Source: a virus. From it: DNA of 49,182 nucleotides. Made by a program: the position numbers and the translations under genes. The notes beneath the pieces are model-generated. The model was not told the DNA's origin. It did no database searches and was given only the letters and a program-made list of their open reading frames with translations. The stretch is from IMG/VR virus record IMGVR_UViG_3300009964_000008, positions 1-49,182 of that record. The stretch is one strand, 5' to 3'. How positions within the stretch are numbered: the stretch's first letter is position 1; every line of letters starts with the position of its first letter. Of the stretch, positions 3,069-49,182 are shown one piece after another.

Positions 3069-3404
3069 ATGACAGACAAGGTATTTAAGCTGAGCGACAA
3101 GTACGCGAACCTGCTGATCGAGGTCTGGGAAACCAAGATCAAGGTTGTAGATGACTCACGCCATAACCCACGCGTCACAATATTCTACGGCGACCTTCTT
3201 GAACCCAGCACGATGGTCTACTTCAAGAGCCGACAGTGGTTCTACTCGAAGCCCTATGGTGTTGGTGTGCTGCACGGGATGTGGACAAACTCGGATGGAG
3301 AAGCAAAGAGCGTGTACGACTTCCTCACTGACATCATTGGCTTCGAACGACCTGTCGAAGTTGTCTTTGACCCCCGACACTTTACCCCGAAAGGAACGAT
3401 CTGA
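3069..3404 (+). CDS. Hypothetical protein, paralogue family member
   Basis: ATG at 3069 with RBS AAAGGAGAAAACAA; the ORF-track start 2991 has none. Carries STMVYFKSRQWFYSKPYGVGVLHGMWTNSDG. Confidence 0.8.
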   Translation: MTDKVFKLSDKYANLLIEVWETKIKVVDDSRHNPRVTIFYGDLLEPSTMVYFKSRQWFYSKPYGVGVLHGMWTNSDGEAKSVYDFLTDIIGFERPVEVVFDPRHFTPKGTI

Positions 3405-3733
3405 TGACCGATAACAACAACATTAAGAAGATGATTGGCGATGCTGTCGAAGAGTTCCGTAAGAAGCTCGAAAAGGAGTTCAAGGAACCTGAGCTGACAG
3501 GCACACAGTTTGAGTGCATCGACAACAACGGCGAACTGTATATTGCGGACGCTGAAGAGTTTATGACAGGAACACTTATCATCGTTGACGATTGGGAGGT
3601 GTTTCGTGTCCTAGAGGCTTTCGATCAGAAGCCGTGGATTACGTACGTTGGAGAGGCATACACTCACTCACAGTTCGCTGAACTTATGTGTGAGCAGTTT
3701 GTCAAGCCGAAGATCATTCACGTGGGGTTGTGA
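3404..3733 (+). CDS. Hypothetical acidic protein
   Basis: TGATG stop-start overlap with the upstream gene. Contains GTLIIVDDWEVF...W, loosely resembling the paralogue motif. Confidence 0.7.
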   Translation: MTDNNNIKKMIGDAVEEFRKKLEKEFKEPELTGTQFECIDNNGELYIADAEEFMTGTLIIVDDWEVFRVLEAFDQKPWITYVGEAYTHSQFAELMCEQFVKPKIIHVGL

Positions 3734-3738
3734 CGTAG

Positions 3739-3939
3739 ATGATACCTGGTATTATTCACTGTTTCCTGGCTCTTCTGTGGGCCGGTGCAGGGTTTATACT
3801 CGGCTACTGTCGGCATGATTGCCGAGACATCCTCAGTAGGCCCGTGTCGTTCCTGCTGGGACTCGCTACCTTTTGCGCGCTAGTTGAGTGCATCTTGCTC
3901 ATGGGTATTGGTGTCGCATTGATTGCGGGGTACCGCTAA
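3739..3939 (+). CDS. Small membrane protein (two hydrophobic helices)
   Basis: 66 aa with two hydrophobic stretches (IIHCFLALLWAGAGFILGY and LMGIGVALIAGY). Confidence 0.55.
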   Translation: MIPGIIHCFLALLWAGAGFILGYCRHDCRDILSRPVSFLLGLATFCALVECILLMGIGVALIAGYR

Positions 3940-4193
3940 TGAAGAAACGTACGACACGGCTACGCTTGTTTACACCTAGCGGGTGGGAGTTCTATTGCGA
4001 CAGCCTTTACGAGTTCACTGCTGGCACTGTTCTGCATGTGAAGGGTACTCTTTGGATGATAGTTCGTAATGACAGCCAATGGGGCGCAGTAAGCGAAGAG
4101 AACAAATTCATAACGCTGCTTCGTTTGGAACGCCTTATCCATGCGGAAGGTTTCGGGGTTGCCGTTTGTATACCTGAAGATTATGACAACTAA
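3939..4193 (+). CDS. Hypothetical protein
   Basis: ATG in a TAATG overlap with the upstream stop (MKKRTTRL...). The ORF-track start 3888 lies inside the upstream gene. Confidence 0.65.
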   Translation: MKKRTTRLRLFTPSGWEFYCDSLYEFTAGTVLHVKGTLWMIVRNDSQWGAVSEENKFITLLRLERLIHAEGFGVAVCIPEDYDN

Positions 4194-6664: not shown

Positions 6665-6750
6665 CCCCTTGTGGCGAAATGGCATACGCAGCGCACTCAA
6701 AATGCGCCGCCCGCACGGGCATGTGAGTTCGACTCTCACCGAGGGGACCA
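6665..6750 (+). tRNA. tRNA-Leu (anticodon CAA), class II, CCA encoded
   Basis: Acceptor CCCCTTG/CGAGGGG (one G-U). Anticodon arm GCGCA-CTCAAAA-TGCGC. Long variable arm GCCC-GCAC-GGGC. T-arm GTGAG-TTCGACT-CTCAC. Discriminator A plus CCA. Confidence 0.9.
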
Positions 6751-6913
6751 CCGAGCACCGGACGATGCTGGATGATTAGGTGTATAAACCTGCCGCTCTG
6801 ATCAAGCGGCCGTGCCGGTTGCCGTGACGGGGGTCACGTGCGGGGTAGCACCCTAGGGCTGACAATTTTTGTGTGATGGTTTTTGTTTCGTCAGTCAACA
6901 GCACCCCTTCTAA

Positions 6914-6986
6914 CGGAATGTAGCGCAGTAGGTAGCGCACCTGGTTTGGGACCAGGGGGCCGTGAGTTCGAGTCTCACCATTCCGA
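6914..6986 (+). tRNA. tRNA-Pro (anticodon TGG)
   Basis: Perfect cloverleaf: CGGAATG TA GCGC-AGTAGGTA-GCGC A CCTGG-TTTGGGA-CCAGG GGGCC GTGAG-TTCGAGT-CTCAC CATTCCG A. Confidence 0.95.
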
Positions 6987-7046
6987 CGTTGCATACGCGT
7001 GTGTAACACCTAGTTCCCAGGTGTCCTCCGGGACTACCTGGGTTTA

Positions 7047-7117
7047 TCCCAGATAGTGTAATGGCAGCATGGCAGGTTTTGGCCCTGTCGGACTAGGTTC
7101 GAGTCCTAGTCTGGGAG
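7047..7117 (+). tRNA. tRNA-Gln (anticodon TTG)
   Basis: Acceptor TCCCAGA/TCTGGGA. Anticodon arm GCAGG-TTTTGGC-CCTGT. T-arm CTAGG-TTCGAGT-CCTAG. Confidence 0.85.
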
Positions 7118-7204
7118 CGCTTGACGATGAGGTTGCTCGATAGCACAAAGTGTCACGACCAAGACACCCCCATCGAACGGTTGGGTCACCCTGGTCAGGT
7201 GGCA

Positions 7205-8048: not shown

Positions 8049-8345
8049 ATGAGCATTGTCGATCTCGCAGTCAAGCTCGGTAAGGCTTTCGAGGGTGCTT
8101 ACTCGTCCGTTATCAAGAATGACGAGATGAAGACCACCATCACCCAGGAGGCCCGTACGGGTGTCTACACGATCACCACCCAGGACGGTGAGCTGATTGC
8201 TCTTCTCGACCAGGGCATTGTCGAGAAGCAGGCGATTACGATGGTGAAGCCTCATACTTATGGTGTCGTCTCGCCCGGTGTCTACACCGTTCCCGGTCAT
8301 AAGATGCAGGAGATTCTTGAGAATCGTCCGATGGATTATCTGTGA
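8049..8345 (+). CDS. Hypothetical protein
   Basis: RBS AAGGAG 7 nt upstream of the ATG. Confidence 0.75.
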   Translation: MSIVDLAVKLGKAFEGAYSSVIKNDEMKTTITQEARTGVYTITTQDGELIALLDQGIVEKQAITMVKPHTYGVVSPGVYTVPGHKMQEILENRPMDYL

Positions 8346-8449
8346 TTGACGACCTGAGACAGCGCGCCTCTGATCTCAGGATTAAGTAACTGAAGGGTTC
8401 GTCCTTTCGGGTACTGGCCTTTCACGCGGGTTCAAAATGCGTGAGGACT

Positions 8450-8484
8450 CATCCCCCTATCGACTAACACTCGGTAGGGGGATG
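8450..8484 (+). terminator. 10-bp stem-loop (possible terminator, no T-run)
   Basis: CATCCCCCTA(8450-8459)...TAGGGGGATG(8475-8484). Confidence 0.35.
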
Positions 8485-8518
8485 ATACTATGTGTGGGTA
8501 GAGTCACACATTCATTAG

Positions 8519-8548
8519 TTGTAACCAGCCTGGTCTGTCAGCTACACT
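8519..8548 (+). promoter_or_regulatory. Candidate promoter TTGTAA-18-TACACT for the surface-protein gene
   Basis: -35 at 8519-8524 and -10 at 8543-8548. Confidence 0.4.
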
Positions 8549-8589
8549 AAATGTTGTCAGACAGGACAACAACGAAAGGACCAACCAGC

Positions 8590-9906
8590 ATGAAGAAGTT
8601 TCTTGCGACGACTGGTGTCGCACTACTGATGATTACTGCGGCTGCTGCTACTGCCAATGCTGCCGACAACACCGAGATCAAGGCCGAGGTCACGAAGGCC
8701 ACGTCCTCGTCTCGACAGACCTCTTCTGAGATCAACGTCGGCGGTACCTGGGCCGTGGGGAAGCTGGCTGTCGGCCAGCAGTTCACTGTTTCGACCGTGC
8801 CGAACGAGGGCAAGGCCCCGTTCACGTGGGCGGCATCTTTCCCGTTCACGTTGGACGACGGCACCAAGATCGGTGAGTGTTCTGCCAACGAGGCGACACT
8901 GACCTGCACGGTCAAGGAAGTGCCGGACGCTTACAAGGATAAGACGGATGTTACTGGCACTTGGTGGGCCAAGGCACGGCTTCAGGGTGGTGCGATTGGC
9001 ACCACCGAGGGTACGATCACGCTGAACGGTAAGGCCGTGAAGACGCTCGTCTGGGGCGACAAGGATGGTACGGGAACCTGCTCGAACGATTGTTCTGCCC
9101 CGGCCCATTATGAATACGCAAACCCAGAGAACGTAAAGTTCGGCTGGTCCAATGCAGACGGCACTATTAGCTGGGGCATTAAGTGGATTGCCAACGGCGG
9201 TGTCGAATATACTGTCAAGGACTTTGACGCGAAGCTGGGTACGACCGTGAAGTGCGCGAAGTCCGACACGTGGAACCCGGATACAACCGAGACCATCACT
9301 GCCACTCAGGTGGACCCGAACACGATCAAGTTCACCGCGCCTGAAGGCTCAAAGACGTGTGTCACGTACCCGCCTGAGCATACTGTCGTTCCTGAAGGTC
9401 AGACCTCTGCGACCAACCGTGCTGAGGTGAATGGCATGAAGCTAGAGGCTACGGCGACGGTTAAGAGCAATGGTGGTACTAATGGTGATGGTTCTGTGAA
9501 GCCGACTCCTGCCCCTGCTCCTAGTGTCACGCCTGAGCCTACGCCTACTCCGTCTGAAGACCCGAAGCCTGAGCCGTCTCCGTCTACCCCTGCACCCGCT
9601 CCGTCTGCGGAACCGACCCCCGCTCCTGCGCCTTCTACGCCTGCTCCTAAGCCTTCTGATGAGCCGCAGTCTGCACCGTCTCCGACCCCTGAGCCGCGTG
9701 TGACGACTTCTCCGGTGCCTACGCCCTTGCCTGAGACCCCGAAGGCTGATGTGCAGCCCACCGTTGCGCCCGCTCCTGAAGCCAAGCTCGCTAAGACGGG
9801 TGCTGCCTCTGAAGGTATCGTGATCGCGCTTGTTACGGTCATTGCTGGTATCGCTGCCTGTGTCGTCGCGTGGCGTGCCGGTCGATTTGGCAACGACCAC
9901 ATCTGA
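8590..9906 (+). CDS. Sortase-anchored (LAKTG) cell-wall surface protein, adhesin-like, with Pro-rich stalk
   Basis: Signal peptide MKKFLATTGVALLMITAAAATANA-AD. A ~300-aa beta-rich region. A long PxP/TPEP stalk. C-terminal LAKTG, hydrophobic helix and RAGR basic tail. RBS GAAAGGA before the 8590 ATG. Confidence 0.85.
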   Translation: MKKFLATTGVALLMITAAAATANAADNTEIKAEVTKATSSSRQTSSEINVGGTWAVGKLAVGQQFTVSTVPNEGKAPFTWAASFPFTLDDGTKIGECSANEATLTCTVKEVPDAYKDKTDVTGTWWAKARLQGGAIGTTEGTITLNGKAVKTLVWGDKDGTGTCSNDCSAPAHYEYANPENVKFGWSNADGTISWGIKWIANGGVEYTVKDFDAKLGTTVKCAKSDTWNPDTTETITATQVDPNTIKFTAPEGSKTCVTYPPEHTVVPEGQTSATNRAEVNGMKLEATATVKSNGGTNGDGSVKPTPAPAPSVTPEPTPTPSEDPKPEPSPSTPAPAPSAEPTPAPAPSTPAPKPSDEPQSAPSPTPEPRVTTSPVPTPLPETPKADVQPTVAPAPEAKLAKTGAASEGIVIALVTVIAGIAACVVAWRAGRFGNDHI

Positions 9907-9937
9907 GTGCTACACTGAGAGCACCTTCCTAACGGGG

Positions 9938-9972
9938 TAAAGCGCCAGTGCTTTCGAGTGCTGGCGCTTTGC
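9938..9972 (+). terminator. Rho-independent terminator after the surface-protein gene
   Basis: GCGCCAGTGCT-TTCG-AGTGCTGGCGC followed by TTTG. Confidence 0.7.
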
Positions 9973-10013
9973 CTTACCCACAAAGCTAAGTGATACTCGT
10001 CACATCAGTTTAG

Positions 10014-10042
10014 CTTGTACTCCGTACAAAAACGTATTAACA
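10014..10042 (+). promoter_or_regulatory. Candidate promoter TTGTAC-17-TAACAT
   Basis: -35 at 10014-10019 and -10 at 10037-10042, upstream of RBS GAAAGGAGG. Confidence 0.4.
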
Positions 10043-10066
10043 TAGACTGCGTAGAAAGGAGGACAC

Positions 10067-10591
10067 ATGACAGACCCTAGTAAGGTTGTGGAAACGTGGC
10101 TCAAGAAAGTTGGCCGCACTAGCTTTAGTTACTCCGATAGAGTCATTCACCAACCGGAAAGCGTCAAAAAGTTCAATCCGGTTAAGTTAGACTCGACAGT
10201 AGAAAAGCTCATCGACAGCATCTACAGGTGGTGTGATGGTGAGATAAAGACAAAGCCGCGATTCAATGATGTCGTCATCTGCCTGAGCCAGTACGTAAGC
10301 CGGAACAACAACTACGCGAACAAGCTCGTTCCACACGTACCAGCCCTTGATGACCTTAACTTCATCTGGGATAAAGAATCACGTATTGCTGTGACAAGCG
10401 GCGACCCAGTAACATACATGGGCATTAACCGTGAACTCATCAACAAGTGGTATAAACACTATAAAGACCTAGAAACTGACTTCGGACAACTAGCTGACGA
10501 AGTTATCTCAGACTGTGTTGTAGCACCAAGCACATTGAAGTTTGCTAAAGCTGCTGCACTCATGGTTGTACTCAACGAAAGGAGAAAGTGA
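10067..10591 (+). CDS. Hypothetical protein
   Basis: Strong RBS GAAAGGAGG. Confidence 0.8.
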   Translation: MTDPSKVVETWLKKVGRTSFSYSDRVIHQPESVKKFNPVKLDSTVEKLIDSIYRWCDGEIKTKPRFNDVVICLSQYVSRNNNYANKLVPHVPALDDLNFIWDKESRIAVTSGDPVTYMGINRELINKWYKHYKDLETDFGQLADEVISDCVVAPSTLKFAKAAALMVVLNERRK

Positions 10592-11001
10592 TGCGACCAC
10601 AACGACAGCACCACAACGATGCTGGTTTCGACCTGTCCACGAAGATGCCTGTCCTCATCTACCCAGGTGAGGTTATCTACGTGGCGACAGGCTACTACCC
10701 TGATAAGCACGACATTCCTGATGGGTCTGTCGGCCTCGTCTTTGCACGCTCGTCACTGAGCAAGAAGGGCCTTCTACTCGCTAACGGTGTCGGTGTCATC
10801 GACGCTGGCTACGAGGGTGAAGTTCTCGTTCCACTGTGGAACATGAGCAAGGACACCCCTGTCGTGCTGGAAGAGCATGAGCGTATCGCTCAGATTGTTA
10901 TTGTCAAGCTAGAGGTCACCTCTGCTCTCTACGCACAGCCACCCGTCCAGGCCGGTGAGCGTGGCGAAGGTGGCTTTGGTTCCACCGGAAAGGTCAATTG
11001 A
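10591..11001 (+). CDS. dut: dUTP diphosphatase (trimeric dUTPase)
   Basis: Motifs AGFDL, ARSS, GVIDAGYEGE, RIAQ and GERGEGGFGSTG. ATG in a GTGATG overlap with the upstream stop. Confidence 0.9.
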   Translation: MRPQRQHHNDAGFDLSTKMPVLIYPGEVIYVATGYYPDKHDIPDGSVGLVFARSSLSKKGLLLANGVGVIDAGYEGEVLVPLWNMSKDTPVVLEEHERIAQIVIVKLEVTSALYAQPPVQAGERGEGGFGSTGKVN

Positions 11002-11003
11002 GA

Positions 11004-11246
11004 ATGATTACCGTTTACTCCAAGCCCAACTGCCCGCAGTGTACTGCAACGTACCGCAAGCTGAAGGCGCTGGGACTACCCTTCAATAGCATCGACGTGA
11101 CGGAAGATGCTGATTCGCTGGCATTTATCCGCGCACTGGGTTATCAGCAGGCACCTGTCGTTGTCGTGCGTGAAGGCGCGCAAATTAAGGAACACTGGTC
11201 TGGGTTCCGACCCGACCTCTTGAAGAAGTATGAGGTGAAAGAATGA
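11004..11246 (+). CDS. nrdH: NrdH-type glutaredoxin-like redoxin
   Basis: CPQC active site near the N-terminus and the WSGFRP motif. Confidence 0.85.
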   Translation: MITVYSKPNCPQCTATYRKLKALGLPFNSIDVTEDADSLAFIRALGYQQAPVVVVREGAQIKEHWSGFRPDLLKKYEVKE

Positions 11247-11665
11247 AAATTACCGACCCTGTGAAGCTCGAAGAAGCGCGCGCCCGTATGGCTAAGGCTC
11301 GTGCGTCTCGTGGACCTGAAAAGTACCCCAAGGATGTCGAAACACGGCTTGAGTTTGTCCGACAGCTCGTGATTAAGCAGTTCAAGGACGTTGGCCTGTC
11401 AATTACAAACGATGGAAAACTGCTCGGAGGGTCTTCTGCGCAGTATTACCGCTCTAAGTTGGTGAACGGTAGCCTGACGATCAAGGACATGATCTTGCTG
11501 GGTGACTACATGCCTGTTGACTGGACTCTTATCTTCAAGTCTATCCGACAGCCGAAGGACGTTCTGCGTCCAATGGATGAAGAGGCGGCAACTATCAACA
11601 TGGAGTTTGTGGAGCCGGGGGATAACCCGTTTGCTGACTATTTCGTTGATGTGGATGGTGTGTGA
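11243..11665 (+). CDS. Hypothetical protein (possible HTH DNA-binding)
   Basis: ATGA overlap with nrdH. The helix-turn-helix guess rests only on the SSAQYYRSKLVNGSLTIKDMILLGDYM segment. Confidence 0.7.
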   Translation: MKITDPVKLEEARARMAKARASRGPEKYPKDVETRLEFVRQLVIKQFKDVGLSITNDGKLLGGSSAQYYRSKLVNGSLTIKDMILLGDYMPVDWTLIFKSIRQPKDVLRPMDEEAATINMEFVEPGDNPFADYFVDVDGV

Positions 11666-11961
11666 TGGAGCCTTCGTTGCGTGATTTTGCTGCGGGCCTC
11701 ACGGACATCCCTAAGTTCGGTTCGACAAAGCTCGTTCGTTTCCTCCGACGTGAAGGTTTCTTGAAGAAGGGGCGCTATATTAGCGAACCGACTGAAAAGG
11801 CCAAGGGCTTGCTCGATGTGCGCCGTGTCTACACTGATGAGGGTAACTCGTATCGGCAGGTGTTCGTCACTGAAGAGGGTGTCCGGGCGTTCACTGATAT
11901 GATTAAGGCTGAGTACGAGGACTTCGGTCCTTGGGAGATTAGGAGCAATTATCGTGATTAG
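11662..11961 (+). CDS. Hypothetical protein, KilAC/antirepressor-C-like by pattern
   Basis: FGSTKLVRFLRREGFL...YRQVFVTEEGVRAF resembles the KilAC DNA-binding domain pattern. Not verified. Confidence 0.6.
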   Translation: MMEPSLRDFAAGLTDIPKFGSTKLVRFLRREGFLKKGRYISEPTEKAKGLLDVRRVYTDEGNSYRQVFVTEEGVRAFTDMIKAEYEDFGPWEIRSNYRD

Positions 11962-12979
11962 TTGGACTGACCTTACTGCTGACTACAACCTGTGGATTCC
12001 TAACTTTGATACAGGGCGTGGTGGTAATGCCATCGACCGCATCATCATCCACCACAACGCTGGCAAGGCCATGTCACACCAAGGCGTGTACGGTGCCTTC
12101 AGCAACAACGGTACGTCTGCGCACTACAACGTGGACATTGACGGCTCGGTTGCTCAGTTCGTTCACGACTGGGATACTGCGTGGCACTGCCCAGGCGTGA
12201 ACAAGCTGTCGATTGGTATCGAGCACGCGAACTCGACGGGCGCTGAGGGTGGCTGGGATGTCGGTGAGACCACCATCGACGCGGGTGCGCACCTGACTGC
12301 TGCTCTGTGTCGTGCGTATGGTCTGGGCCGTCCGCAGTGGCGAGTCAATGTGTTCCCCCACAGCGACTTCTACTCCACGATGTGCCCAGCATCGTTGCGT
12401 GATACGTATGCAAACGAGTACATCGGGAAGGCCCAGCAGTATTACGACAACCTTGACGCTGACCTGTCTGCTAAGGAAGGCTGGGTGTCGCAGAATGGTG
12501 GATGGTGGTACCGCACTGAAGACGGTGGCTACGAGACTGGCTGGTTCCCCGTGGGCGATAAATGGTTCTATGCCAACGAGAAGGGCTGGTTGCAGTTCGG
12601 TTGGCAGCACGTCGATGGTCACTGGTATTTCCTGCATGATGTCCACGATGGGCGTTACGGTGAGATGGAGACCGGCTGGGTGAAGGTCGGTGAGCACTGG
12701 TTCTATCTGAACGACAAGGGCCAGATGCAGACCGGCTGGGTGCTCGACAAGGGCAAGTGGTACTTCCTTGAGGAAAACGGCGCTATGCGTACCGGCTGGC
12801 TGTCGTACAACGGCAACGACTACTTCCTCACCGAGACGGGCGCTATGGCTGTCGGCCTGTGCCAGACGCGACTTGATGGTGCTTGCTCGATTTTCGGTGA
12901 AGACGGCAAGCTGCTTGTCGGCAAGATGGTTGTCGAACAGGACGCTGACGGCATCGTGAAGCTGGTAGAATCTAAGTAA
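11954..12979 (+). CDS. Endolysin: N-acetylmuramoyl-L-alanine amidase (Amidase_2/PGRP) plus cell-wall-binding repeats
   Basis: IIIHHNAG...SAHYNVD...IGIEH...PHSDF..CP zinc-amidase pattern. About six GW-x-(D/N)-x-WYY(L/F)-type repeats follow (CW_binding_1-like). Confidence 0.9.
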   Translation: MISWTDLTADYNLWIPNFDTGRGGNAIDRIIIHHNAGKAMSHQGVYGAFSNNGTSAHYNVDIDGSVAQFVHDWDTAWHCPGVNKLSIGIEHANSTGAEGGWDVGETTIDAGAHLTAALCRAYGLGRPQWRVNVFPHSDFYSTMCPASLRDTYANEYIGKAQQYYDNLDADLSAKEGWVSQNGGWWYRTEDGGYETGWFPVGDKWFYANEKGWLQFGWQHVDGHWYFLHDVHDGRYGEMETGWVKVGEHWFYLNDKGQMQTGWVLDKGKWYFLEENGAMRTGWLSYNGNDYFLTETGAMAVGLCQTRLDGACSIFGEDGKLLVGKMVVEQDADGIVKLVESK

Positions 12980-49012: not shown

Positions 49013-49182
49013 TTAGTCTTCGTACGTGTAATTCACAATCTCGCGCGGGCCGGTGTAATAGGCGAACTTGTAAATGATGCGCTCGCTTCCATCGGGACTA
49101 GGGACAGTCACACTCACGGGTAGGTACCCGTGCATGGTGTAGGCATAACCGCGCCGCTCACCCGGGAACTGTGCGTCAAAAA
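49013..49182 (-). CDS. 3' portion of the wrap-around gene (49056-49182 duplicates 1-127)
   Basis: Same frame as 1..251(-). Ends ...YTGPREIVNYTYED with TAA at 49015-49013. Confidence 0.6.
   Translation of the reverse strand, partial: FDAQFPGERRGYAYTMHGYLPVSVTVPSPDGSERIIYKFAYYTGPREIVNYTYED
49056..49182. repeat. Terminal direct repeat, copy 2 (identical to 1-127)
   Basis: Exact duplicate of the window start. Confidence 0.95.

Follow-up and report, generated by a model that had tools for sequence, protein, structure and literature searches.

The IMG/VR virus record IMGVR_UViG_3300009964_000008, taken from position 1 to position 49,182 and referred to throughout as the window (49,182 nucleotides), is a tailed-phage genome of about 49 kb. 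On its + strand, at 8590..9906 with the stop codon included, lies a coding sequence, identified as an open reading frame (ORF) with its translation, for a surface protein of 438 amino acids (aa). A first-pass annotation, made from the letters of the window alone, had read this gene as a self-contained moron encoding a sortase-anchored, adhesin-like protein. Here we describe the anatomy of the gene and its product, the predicted fold, the variable site that the cassette occupies, and the homologues, which are found in other phages and in a chromosomal clade assigned to the epibiont Nanosynbacter (TM7). The relatives of the locus referred to below are 28 loci from a scan of viral contigs, mostly of 46-53 kb, that carry the gene for a 174-aa protein found downstream in the window (10067-10591).

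The functional start of the surface-protein gene is the ATG at 8590 and not that at 8551: the former is conserved in 26 relatives together with the ribosome-binding site ACGAAAGGA at 8572-8580, and the latter is not. The GAAAGGA of this site (8574..8580, +), 9 nt ahead of the ATG, is invariant in the relatives. Residues 1-24 (8590..8661, +) read by inspection as a Sec-type signal peptide, MKKFLATTGVALLMITAAAATANA followed by AD, with two lysines, a hydrophobic core and an A-x-A site at which cleavage is predicted between ANA and AD; it contains neither a lipobox cysteine nor twin arginines, and a signal-like N-terminal segment is present in every homologue. The beta-rich region that follows occupies residues 25-300, and its 276 aa compare with the roughly 300 aa estimated in the first pass. 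It comprises a first IgG-like domain (residues 25-155; 8662..9054, +) with the conserved Cys97 and Cys106, an interdomain linker (residues 156-180; 9055..9129, +) containing a WGDxDGxGxCxxDC loop that includes Cys164 and Cys168 and whose columns are invariant or nearly so family-wide, and a second IgG-like domain (residues 181-300; 9130..9489, +) with invariant K183, D211, N276, C222 and C257 and the motif GGT(D/N)GDG. Beyond it a wall-spanning stalk rich in Pro, Thr, Ser and Glu, recognized from its composition (residues 301-399; 9490..9786, +), is the part of the protein that varies most in length and sequence; such a stalk had been noted before, although at 99 aa it is shorter than the 110 or so proposed. 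After the sorting pentapeptide LAKTG (residues 400-404; 9787..9801, +) come a hydrophobic stretch of 19 residues and a basic tail, RAGRFGNDHI (residues 405-438; 9802..9903, +), which complete the cell-wall sorting signal, so that the signal peptide, pentapeptide, hydrophobic helix and basic tail of the earlier description can all be read in the product.

The beta-rich region is predicted to be a tandem IgG-like ligand-binding region of the MSCRAMM (microbial surface components recognizing adhesive matrix molecules) or Cna type. An AlphaFold2 model of residues 25-307, built on an alignment of 19 family sequences, has a predicted local distance difference test score (pLDDT) of 88 and a predicted template modelling score (pTM) of 0.72, and shows two beta-sandwich domains joined by a coil of about 27 residues (model residues 131-157), the strands of domain 1 falling at model residues 7-130. 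When the model was compared with the PDB using Foldseek, the top 23 matches were MSCRAMM ligand-binding regions, with E values from 3e-11 to 1e-8 and template modelling (TM) scores of about 0.5 for the best. The first was the N1N2 region of CNA of Staphylococcus aureus (E 3e-11, TM 0.53), and further matches included ClfB, SdrE, ClfA, Cnm, RspB, FnBPA, Srr1/2, UafA, SdrC and the fungal adhesin Als3; those to CNA, ClfB, SdrE, ClfA, Cnm and FnBPA extend over both domains. The collagen binders CNA, Cnm and RspB are the top structural matches and also have the highest sequence identity (15-18%). The adhesin fold suspected in the first pass thus gains the backing of both the model and the structural search.

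A virion-associated fold had been named beforehand as the outcome that would speak against a surface adhesin. It was looked for with Foldseek among predicted viral structures, where no capsid, tail or baseplate fold matched and the sole good match was a metagenomic phage protein annotated 'Clumping factor'. Some phage proteins do act as adhesins for the bacterium as well, PblA and PblB of Streptococcus mitis phage SM1 being examples, and the product could by analogy be a virion component or a factor released at lysis. We regard this as very improbable, and it fits the data poorly: the product bears a signal peptide of the cleavable type together with a full sorting signal, its model resembles neither tail nor capsid folds, the structural block (14.1-33 kb) does not include the gene, and close relatives without the gene have genomes of normal size.

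Several features of the region are shared by the family. Six cysteines are invariant or nearly so across the family and are read as three disulfides, 97-106, 164-168 and 222-257, which suits an exported actinobacterial protein. The WGDxDGxGxCxxDC loop may bind calcium, and the GGT(D/N)GDG segment, modelled as a short additional strand behind the final one of domain 2, could serve as a latch. K183, D211 and N276 might form a CnaA-type isopeptide triad.

By sequence, the protein stands outside any described family. A Pfam scan gave only a sub-threshold Tissue_fac match (E 0.2) and no membership of Collagen_bind or SdrG_C_C; NCBIfam gave no match, its LPXTG-anchor models included; the PHROGs match is confined to the signal-peptide region; and PADLOC gave none at E <= 0.01. 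Against PDB sequences neither the single sequence (no usable match) nor the family profile (none at E <= 10) found a relative, and the literature search found no paper mentioning the family. The family is narrow, with 29 representatives at 50% identity among 1.84 billion proteins, yet common: homologues of 77% identity or more make up at least 120 distinct 90%-identity clusters, mostly on contigs of about 50 kb. We therefore describe it, on the strength of the predicted fold, as a putative sequence-orphan MSCRAMM-like family.

The C-terminal signal is a constant property of this family. An L[AP]xTG motif, a membrane segment and a basic tail were present in every full-length homologue examined. 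The pentapeptide is LAKTG in 121 phage-side homologues, LARTG in four and LAHTG in two, with LPVTG, LAQTG, LATTG and LDHTG found once each; in the TM7 clade all 126 of 126 carry a signal (77 LAVTG, 42 LPVTG, 4 LAITG and 3 LAKTG). As judged from these alignments, the sorting signal is more than a chance resemblance and is conserved family-wide. LAxTG is the motif of class E housekeeping sortases in Actinomycetota (PMC8225981, PMC7244523); one of these, SrtA of Actinomyces oris, attaches proteins that bear a LAQTG signal (PMC7244523). The scanned ORFs of the window yielded no sortase, in agreement with the first-pass annotation, and for this reason we infer, soundly in our view, that anchoring would depend on a sortase of the host.

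Substitution rates locate the constraint on the protein. When the window gene was compared with 22 relatives, the ratio of nonsynonymous to synonymous substitution (dN/dS) was 0.16 for domain 1, 0.08 for domain 2, 0.26 for the stalk and 0.49 for the sorting signal, with 0.12 for a neighbouring core gene, and column entropy followed the same pattern. The binding region, and not merely the anchor, is under strong purifying selection. These values bear on a different use of the sorting signal, in which an abundant LAxTG substrate would saturate the essential housekeeping sortase and stress the envelope during takeover of the cell. Such jamming has a basis in Actinomyces oris, in which cells short of SrtA die when the LAxTG glycoprotein GspA builds up unanchored in the membrane (PMC7244523). 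A decoy would nevertheless be expected to show the opposite of the pattern found, in which the sorting signal is the least constrained part and the adhesin domains are held at 0.08-0.16, and a prophage and a chromosome have retained the gene as well; this explanation also fits poorly, and we think it scarcely credible.

Comparison of the relatives shows that the gene travels as a unit. The surface-protein gene, or the part of it retained by the contig, lies immediately upstream of the 174-aa gene in 26 of the 28 loci. In the other two (L044 and L046) the cassette is absent, and a structured element corresponding to 8350-8489 directly abuts the homologue of the 174-aa gene; with the flanks adjacent there, the insertion is placed at about 8490-10031 (+) and comprises a candidate promoter, the adhesin gene and a terminator-like hairpin. 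The interruption of a gene series remarked on in the first pass is accordingly an insertion/deletion difference among relatives. GC content is 0.593 in the gene and 0.657 in the stalk, as against 0.52 in the window. Taken together, the comparison of relatives supports the proposal of a self-contained moron, insofar as its parts can be read from sequence.

The upstream part of the cassette contains a candidate sigma-70-type promoter at 8519..8548 (+), with a -35 hexamer TTGTAA (8519-8524), an 18-nt spacer and a -10 hexamer TACACT (8543-8548). Its match to the consensus is weak (8/12) and a consensus scanner made no call for it, yet TTGTNN, an 18-nt spacer and TA(C/T)(A/G)CT are kept in 26/26 relatives, even where the upstream neighbour differs. 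This conservation of residues and spacing, which travel with the gene, makes the promoter proposed in the first pass plausible. The -10 hexamer lies in the loop of an inverted repeat (8528..8567, +); of seven sequence variants tested, three preserve two of its pairs through compensatory changes. We also considered GCTACACT as a shared phage promoter motif and rejected it, as it is not enriched in the window.

At the other end, a terminator-like hairpin of 19 bp (9934..9975, +) has a predicted folding energy (dG) of -37.5 kcal/mol and a z-score of -4.2. Four of its pairs show compensatory changes in the relatives and almost none are broken. It has no T-tract, which is why the scanner missed it. 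The terminator first proposed for the gene thus corresponds to a hairpin with covarying pairs that travels with the gene. A second promoter-like sequence, TTGGCA-18 nt-TACACT with a TG extension (9887-9916), overlaps the adhesin stop codon and lies upstream of this hairpin; its TGAGTG(A/C)TACACT part is conserved in the relatives.

The structured intergenic element (8350..8489, +; fold z-score -6.5) lies outside the cassette and marks the 5' boundary of a hot spot of insertion. It forms several hairpins, is 84-98% identical in all relatives, including the two that lack the cassette, and is too invariant for covariation analysis; no Rfam family matched it or other sequence in the vicinity of the gene. 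The element could be either a phage non-coding RNA or a group of terminators that closes the early operon. In eight relatives (L022-L025, L032, L037, L038 and L040) an additional gene for a GH16 glycoside hydrolase of 315-360 aa lies between this element and the adhesin gene (L022:1369-2451; L032:1478-2425). It scores 23-24 bits against PF00722, for which the cut-off is 22, and has the catalytic sequence GEIDVLE; its product has a Pro-rich C-terminus and no obvious signal peptide. Since this gene too was inserted there, the site near 8490 is a hot spot, with cargo related to the envelope or to glycans. On the upstream side of the structured element, a gene for a 98-aa protein (8049-8345), with no match in Pfam or PADLOC, is also missing in L044 and L046, so that a second variable gene flanks the region.

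The organization of the remainder of the genome provides context for the cassette. Genes at 2.2-33 kb are on the + strand and include small early genes, three tRNAs, and genes for a dUTPase, a glutaredoxin-like protein, an endolysin and holins, followed by the terminase, portal, capsid, tape measure and tail genes. The replication genes at 33.8-49 kb are on the - strand and encode a DNA polymerase, a primase, a Sak4-like protein, an exonuclease, a dCMP deaminase and a helicase. The endolysin (Amidase_2 with choline-binding-type wall-binding repeats) and the holin-like genes, at 11954-12979, are upstream of the terminase and not after the tail genes. Between the leftward and rightward blocks, at about 650-2200, are 1.5 kb without a convincing ORF that are rich in G+T (GC skew +0.47), with short tandem repeats at 1526-1570 in an AT-rich core; an origin, divergent promoters or one end of the genome may lie here. 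Pfam and PHROGs scans, covering the larger unassigned window ORFs, found no integrase or repressor, and within the limits of these scans the phage looks virulent.

The lysogenic conversion proposed in the first-pass annotation accordingly does not suit this genome, which has its own DNA polymerase, primase and helicase and in which no integrase was found. The homologue in the temperate phage xhp1, which bears on the same point, lies inside the rightward early block of that phage. Remodelling of the cell surface during infection is the better description.

We favour as host an oral actinobacterium such as a member of the Actinomycetaceae or Rothia, a choice to which the terminase, the endolysin and the tRNAs point; the phage is an oral one and probably infects Actinomycetota. 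The best matches of the large terminase are from Arthrobacter phages (41-42% identity), with Microbacterium and Streptomyces phages among the commoner matches; those of the endolysin are from phages of Eggerthella, Propionibacterium and Corynebacterium and from D_HF4_2 (see below), the remaining matching records being mostly Streptococcus phages. The three tRNAs (6665-7118), Leu-CAA, Pro-TGG and Gln-TTG, decode TTG, CCA and CAA, codons that are A/T-ending or otherwise rare and would be expected to be rare in a high-GC host, and the set fits a phage of lower GC than its host. Labels of metagenome-assembled genomes (Rothia, Actinomyces and Atopobium) attached to contigs of about 51 kb were considered as host evidence and dropped, as these contigs are whole phage genomes binned with bacteria. 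Searched with megablast, a set of 50,697 phage records gave no match to the cassette region or to 22 kb of the window.

The adhesin gene nevertheless has relatives in unrelated phages. A tblastn search of the phage collection found it in two records only. One is Caudovirus D_HF4_2 (69% identity), a 38.7 kb genome from saliva in which an integrase is not annotated; its predicted host belongs to the Actinomycetota (PMC10537320). The other is gp38 of Actinomyces phage xhp1 (58% identity), which overlaps the next gene of the early block; xhp1 is an inducible prophage of Schaalia odontolytica XH001, and the published account of Xhp1 does not mention the gp38 protein. Further members lie on elements of 87-125 kb (40% identity, LAHTG; L015-L017, with the gene at 10001-11353), on a 49 kb low-GC phage contig (31% identity, LAQTG) and in one further prophage fragment that is xhp1-like. 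The 87-125 kb elements carry many small ORFs without assignment together with MreB-like_C, GmrSD_N and TnpB/IS605 genes, and may be large phages or plasmids. In local comparisons the adhesin gene is the only gene of the window that xhp1, the 87-125 kb elements or the low-GC phage also have, and D_HF4_2 has in common with the window the adhesin gene and the amidase domain of the endolysin. The neighbours of the adhesin gene in each phage are early or replication genes of the same strand, and all known carriers come from oral or saliva samples or from Actinomycetaceae. These comparisons indicate horizontal spread among unrelated oral phages.

This distribution can also be read in terms of superinfection exclusion, with the wall-anchored protein binding or shielding the phage receptor, probably a cell-wall polysaccharide, so that further virions would fail to adsorb and progeny would not be wasted on doomed cells. 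Carriage by unrelated phages from the same oral samples is what a common receptor would lead one to expect, and an early position of the gene in every phage lineage that has it is in keeping with such a role. The Schaalia XH001 phages require cell-wall polysaccharide, and Xhp1 virions bind both XH001 and the epibiont TM7x (PMC11032452, PMC13578794). A stalked adhesin, however, projects from the wall instead of covering it, and PADLOC gave no defence or exclusion match. Known Gram-positive exclusion proteins such as Ltp and Sie2009 are small lipoproteins or membrane proteins and not MSCRAMM-like domains on a 99-aa stalk. Receptor masking would also leave the copy at a core locus of the epibiont unexplained, and on balance we think it unlikely.

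One large group of homologues is chromosomal. The homologue P0121, with 50% identity over the domain and an LPVTG motif, lies in the arrangement secE-nusG-rplK-sua5-(eno)-rplA-[gene]-rplJ-rplL. Clusters of the adhesin itself bear no organism names, and the assignment of its clade to TM7 rests on the neighbouring enolase. Among the 1,475 sequences that cluster with this enolase at 90% identity is WP_243819164.1, from Candidatus Nanosynbacter sp. TM7-087, and the remoter relatives of the enolase that have a name belong to Candidatus Saccharibacteria. A search with P0121 recovered a large clade at 59-100% identity, on contigs of up to 730 kb, a length equal to that of an entire Nanosynbacter genome, and the rplA-rplJ site was found in all three of the contig groups whose gene neighbourhood was read. 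Loci of this clade are L005, L006, L007, L018, L019 and L048, the gene being at L048:6001-7350. Within the clade the second domain varies more than the first. A WhiB-like ORF beside the TM7 copy was considered as co-transferred actinophage DNA and rejected, since some variants lack it and no phage locus matches it.

A neighbour-joining tree of 262 domain columns (100 bootstraps, midpoint rooting) shows the TM7 clade as monophyletic (100) and groups it (100) with a clade formed by the xhp1, D_HF4_2 and window groups (86). Outside these fall the 87-125 kb elements, the xhp1-like P0125, the low-GC phage and the high-GC P0155. The last, on a deeper branch, has LASTG, a membrane segment and RRQRS, and is the first of a tandem pair after rpoA-rplQ in an actinobacterium of 69% GC (L050:1680-2918 and 3104-4069), the only chromosomal actinobacterial context found. 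The closest relatives of the window protein are thus other phages and the TM7 chromosomal clade, and not ordinary adhesins of a bacterial host, a possibility that the first pass had proposed to check.

The simplest history that the tree would allow begins with an actinobacterial chromosomal adhesin, captured and exchanged by phages and transferred once into Nanosynbacter. More specifically, the family may have arisen on an Actinomycetota chromosome and passed from phages of Actinomycetaceae to an ancestor of oral Nanosynbacter, where it was fixed between rplA and rplJ and diversified; we offer this scenario tentatively and rate it at rather less than an even chance. Nanosynbacter TM7 bacteria are obligate epibionts of Actinomycetaceae. 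XH001 carries the epibiont Nanosynbacter lyticus TM7x, to which Xhp1 virions bind and which they infect to a small degree (PMC13578794); this makes phage-to-TM7 transfer physically plausible. If this history is correct, the gene would be a genomic footprint of gene flow from the phages of a host bacterium to an epibiont of the candidate phyla radiation (CPR); infected hosts and epibionts would show the same adhesin against the same ligand, and phage and epibiont would compete or cooperate at the host surface.

The shared family suggests in addition that the phage copy displayed on the host might compete for, or mimic, the ligand interaction of the Nanosynbacter homologue and so alter attachment of the epibiont, which is known to change susceptibility to phage. 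The family is common to Schaalia/Actinomycetota-type phages and Nanosynbacter chromosomes, TM7x shields XH001 from phage LC001 through lowered receptor synthesis (PMC11032452), and Xhp1 binds TM7x (PMC13578794). The argument is, however, wholly circumstantial: the literature found has no word on the function of the TM7 copy, and that the window phage has a TM7-bearing host is itself a supposition. We consider interference with, or exploitation of, the epibiont to be decidedly unlikely.

The reading that we prefer, and hold to be fairly probable, is that infected cells, or the lysogens of temperate relatives, display the protein as a sortase-anchored adhesin. The gene would be transcribed from its own promoter and its transcript ended at its own hairpin. 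The product would be exported via Sec, after which the host housekeeping class E sortase would cut between T and G of LAKTG and couple the protein covalently to peptidoglycan, and the 99-aa proline-rich stalk would carry the tandem IgG-like region past the wall. The infected cell would thereby be made to bind a ligand in dental plaque. The preferred ligand may be a cell-surface component of the Actinomycetaceae community, since an obligate epibiont of these bacteria keeps the domain at a core locus, and binding would retain the infected cell where its neighbours are susceptible, to the advantage of phage transmission.

Several points weigh against this reading. The fold assignment depends on one prediction from a shallow 19-sequence alignment, with no sequence profile link found to characterized adhesins. 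TIGR01167 of NCBIfam, the LPXTG model named in the first pass as a check, and PF00746 (Gram_pos_anchor) of Pfam gave no match at E <= 1, a miss for which the LAxTG variation may account. The GC content of the window is far from that of Schaalia (0.52 against about 0.65). The LAxTG motif, once considered as proof of an actinobacterial host and then dropped, cannot settle the host phylum, because the TM7 copies mostly carry LAxTG too, predominantly as LAVTG. That a lytic phage profits from an adhesin is argued and not observed. With collagen binders as the best structural matches, moreover, a human ligand fits as well as a bacterial one.

The domain might accordingly bind collagen, salivary pellicle or some other matrix, acting as a colonization factor that keeps infected or lysogenic cells, and independently TM7 cells, on oral surfaces. 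The rank of CNA, Cnm and RspB among the structural matches, the oral or Actinomycetaceae provenance of every known carrier, and a long interdomain linker that recalls the 'collagen hug' of CNA are all consistent with this. The identity to these collagen binders is nevertheless very low, no Collagen_bind match was found in Pfam, and a lytic phage gains little by anchoring a cell that lyses within one cycle. While the evidence does not tell human and bacterial ligands apart, we judge a role in binding to human surfaces to be improbable, and display of an adhesin with a bacterial ligand in plaque remains the interpretation that we favour.

Because the domain is strongly constrained and unrelated phages have acquired the gene independently, a changed adhesive surface of the infected cell appears to pay for the phage. 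This bears on the spread of phages in structured biofilms such as dental plaque, and links Schaalia, its prophage Xhp1 and TM7x, three partners recently shown to interact (PMC13578794, PMC11032452). The family offers a candidate molecule for host recognition by the epibiont and for interference between phage and epibiont, as well as a case in which gene transfer between phages and CPR bacteria can be tested. What is new is a putative sequence-orphan family, its carriage by apparently virulent phages, its exchange among unrelated oral phages and its presence as a fixed clade in a CPR epibiont. To our knowledge, phage-borne sortase-anchored proteins have been described from a few prophages of pathogens, and not as a conserved module passed horizontally among apparently virulent phages of commensal Actinomycetota of the mouth.

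Compared with known systems, the protein most resembles the MSCRAMMs (CNA N1N2, ClfA/ClfB, SdrE, Cnm and RspB) in having a signal peptide, two adjacent IgG-like beta-sandwiches, a wall-spanning low-complexity region and a C-terminal sorting signal. It differs from them in its three conserved cysteine pairs, the DxDGxGxCxxDC loop, LAxTG in place of LPxTG and its carriage by phages, and there is no sequence kinship detectable with Pfam, NCBIfam or a family profile searched against the PDB; for the dock-lock-latch or collagen-hug binding of the MSCRAMMs, in which a latch strand enters the neighbouring domain, the model offers a candidate latch. With class E sortase substrates, such as GspA of A. 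oris, other LAxTG proteins and the chaplins of Streptomyces, it has in common LAxTG, a membrane segment and a basic tail; those, however, are chromosomal proteins of the host with other passenger domains, whereas anchoring of the phage protein is predicted from its sequence. Ltp of Streptococcus thermophilus phage TP-J34 and the Sie proteins are likewise phage-encoded, exported and surface-tethered, and act on the envelope. They are, however, small lipoproteins or membrane proteins that block DNA injection, whereas the window protein lacks a lipobox, is of the sortase type, is adhesin-like and has no PADLOC match.

As a phage-borne, sortase-anchored surface protein it is of a known kind, with SasX as precedent. 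In methicillin-resistant S. aureus (MRSA) of type ST239, SasX alters bacterial adhesion and colonization. It is an LPXTG surface protein encoded by a phiSPbeta-like prophage (PMC7047976). SasX belongs to another fold family and is expressed in lysogens of a Bacillota prophage, whereas the gene described here lies among early genes in a carrier without a recognizable integrase and is spread across unrelated phage lineages and a CPR chromosome. Finally, the cassette conforms to morons in the lambda sense in being present or absent at one site in related genomes, in having candidate promoter and terminator elements, and in its deviating GC content; it departs from them in that the window phage appears to be virulent and in that the site it occupies is a hot spot which also accepts a GH16 gene.

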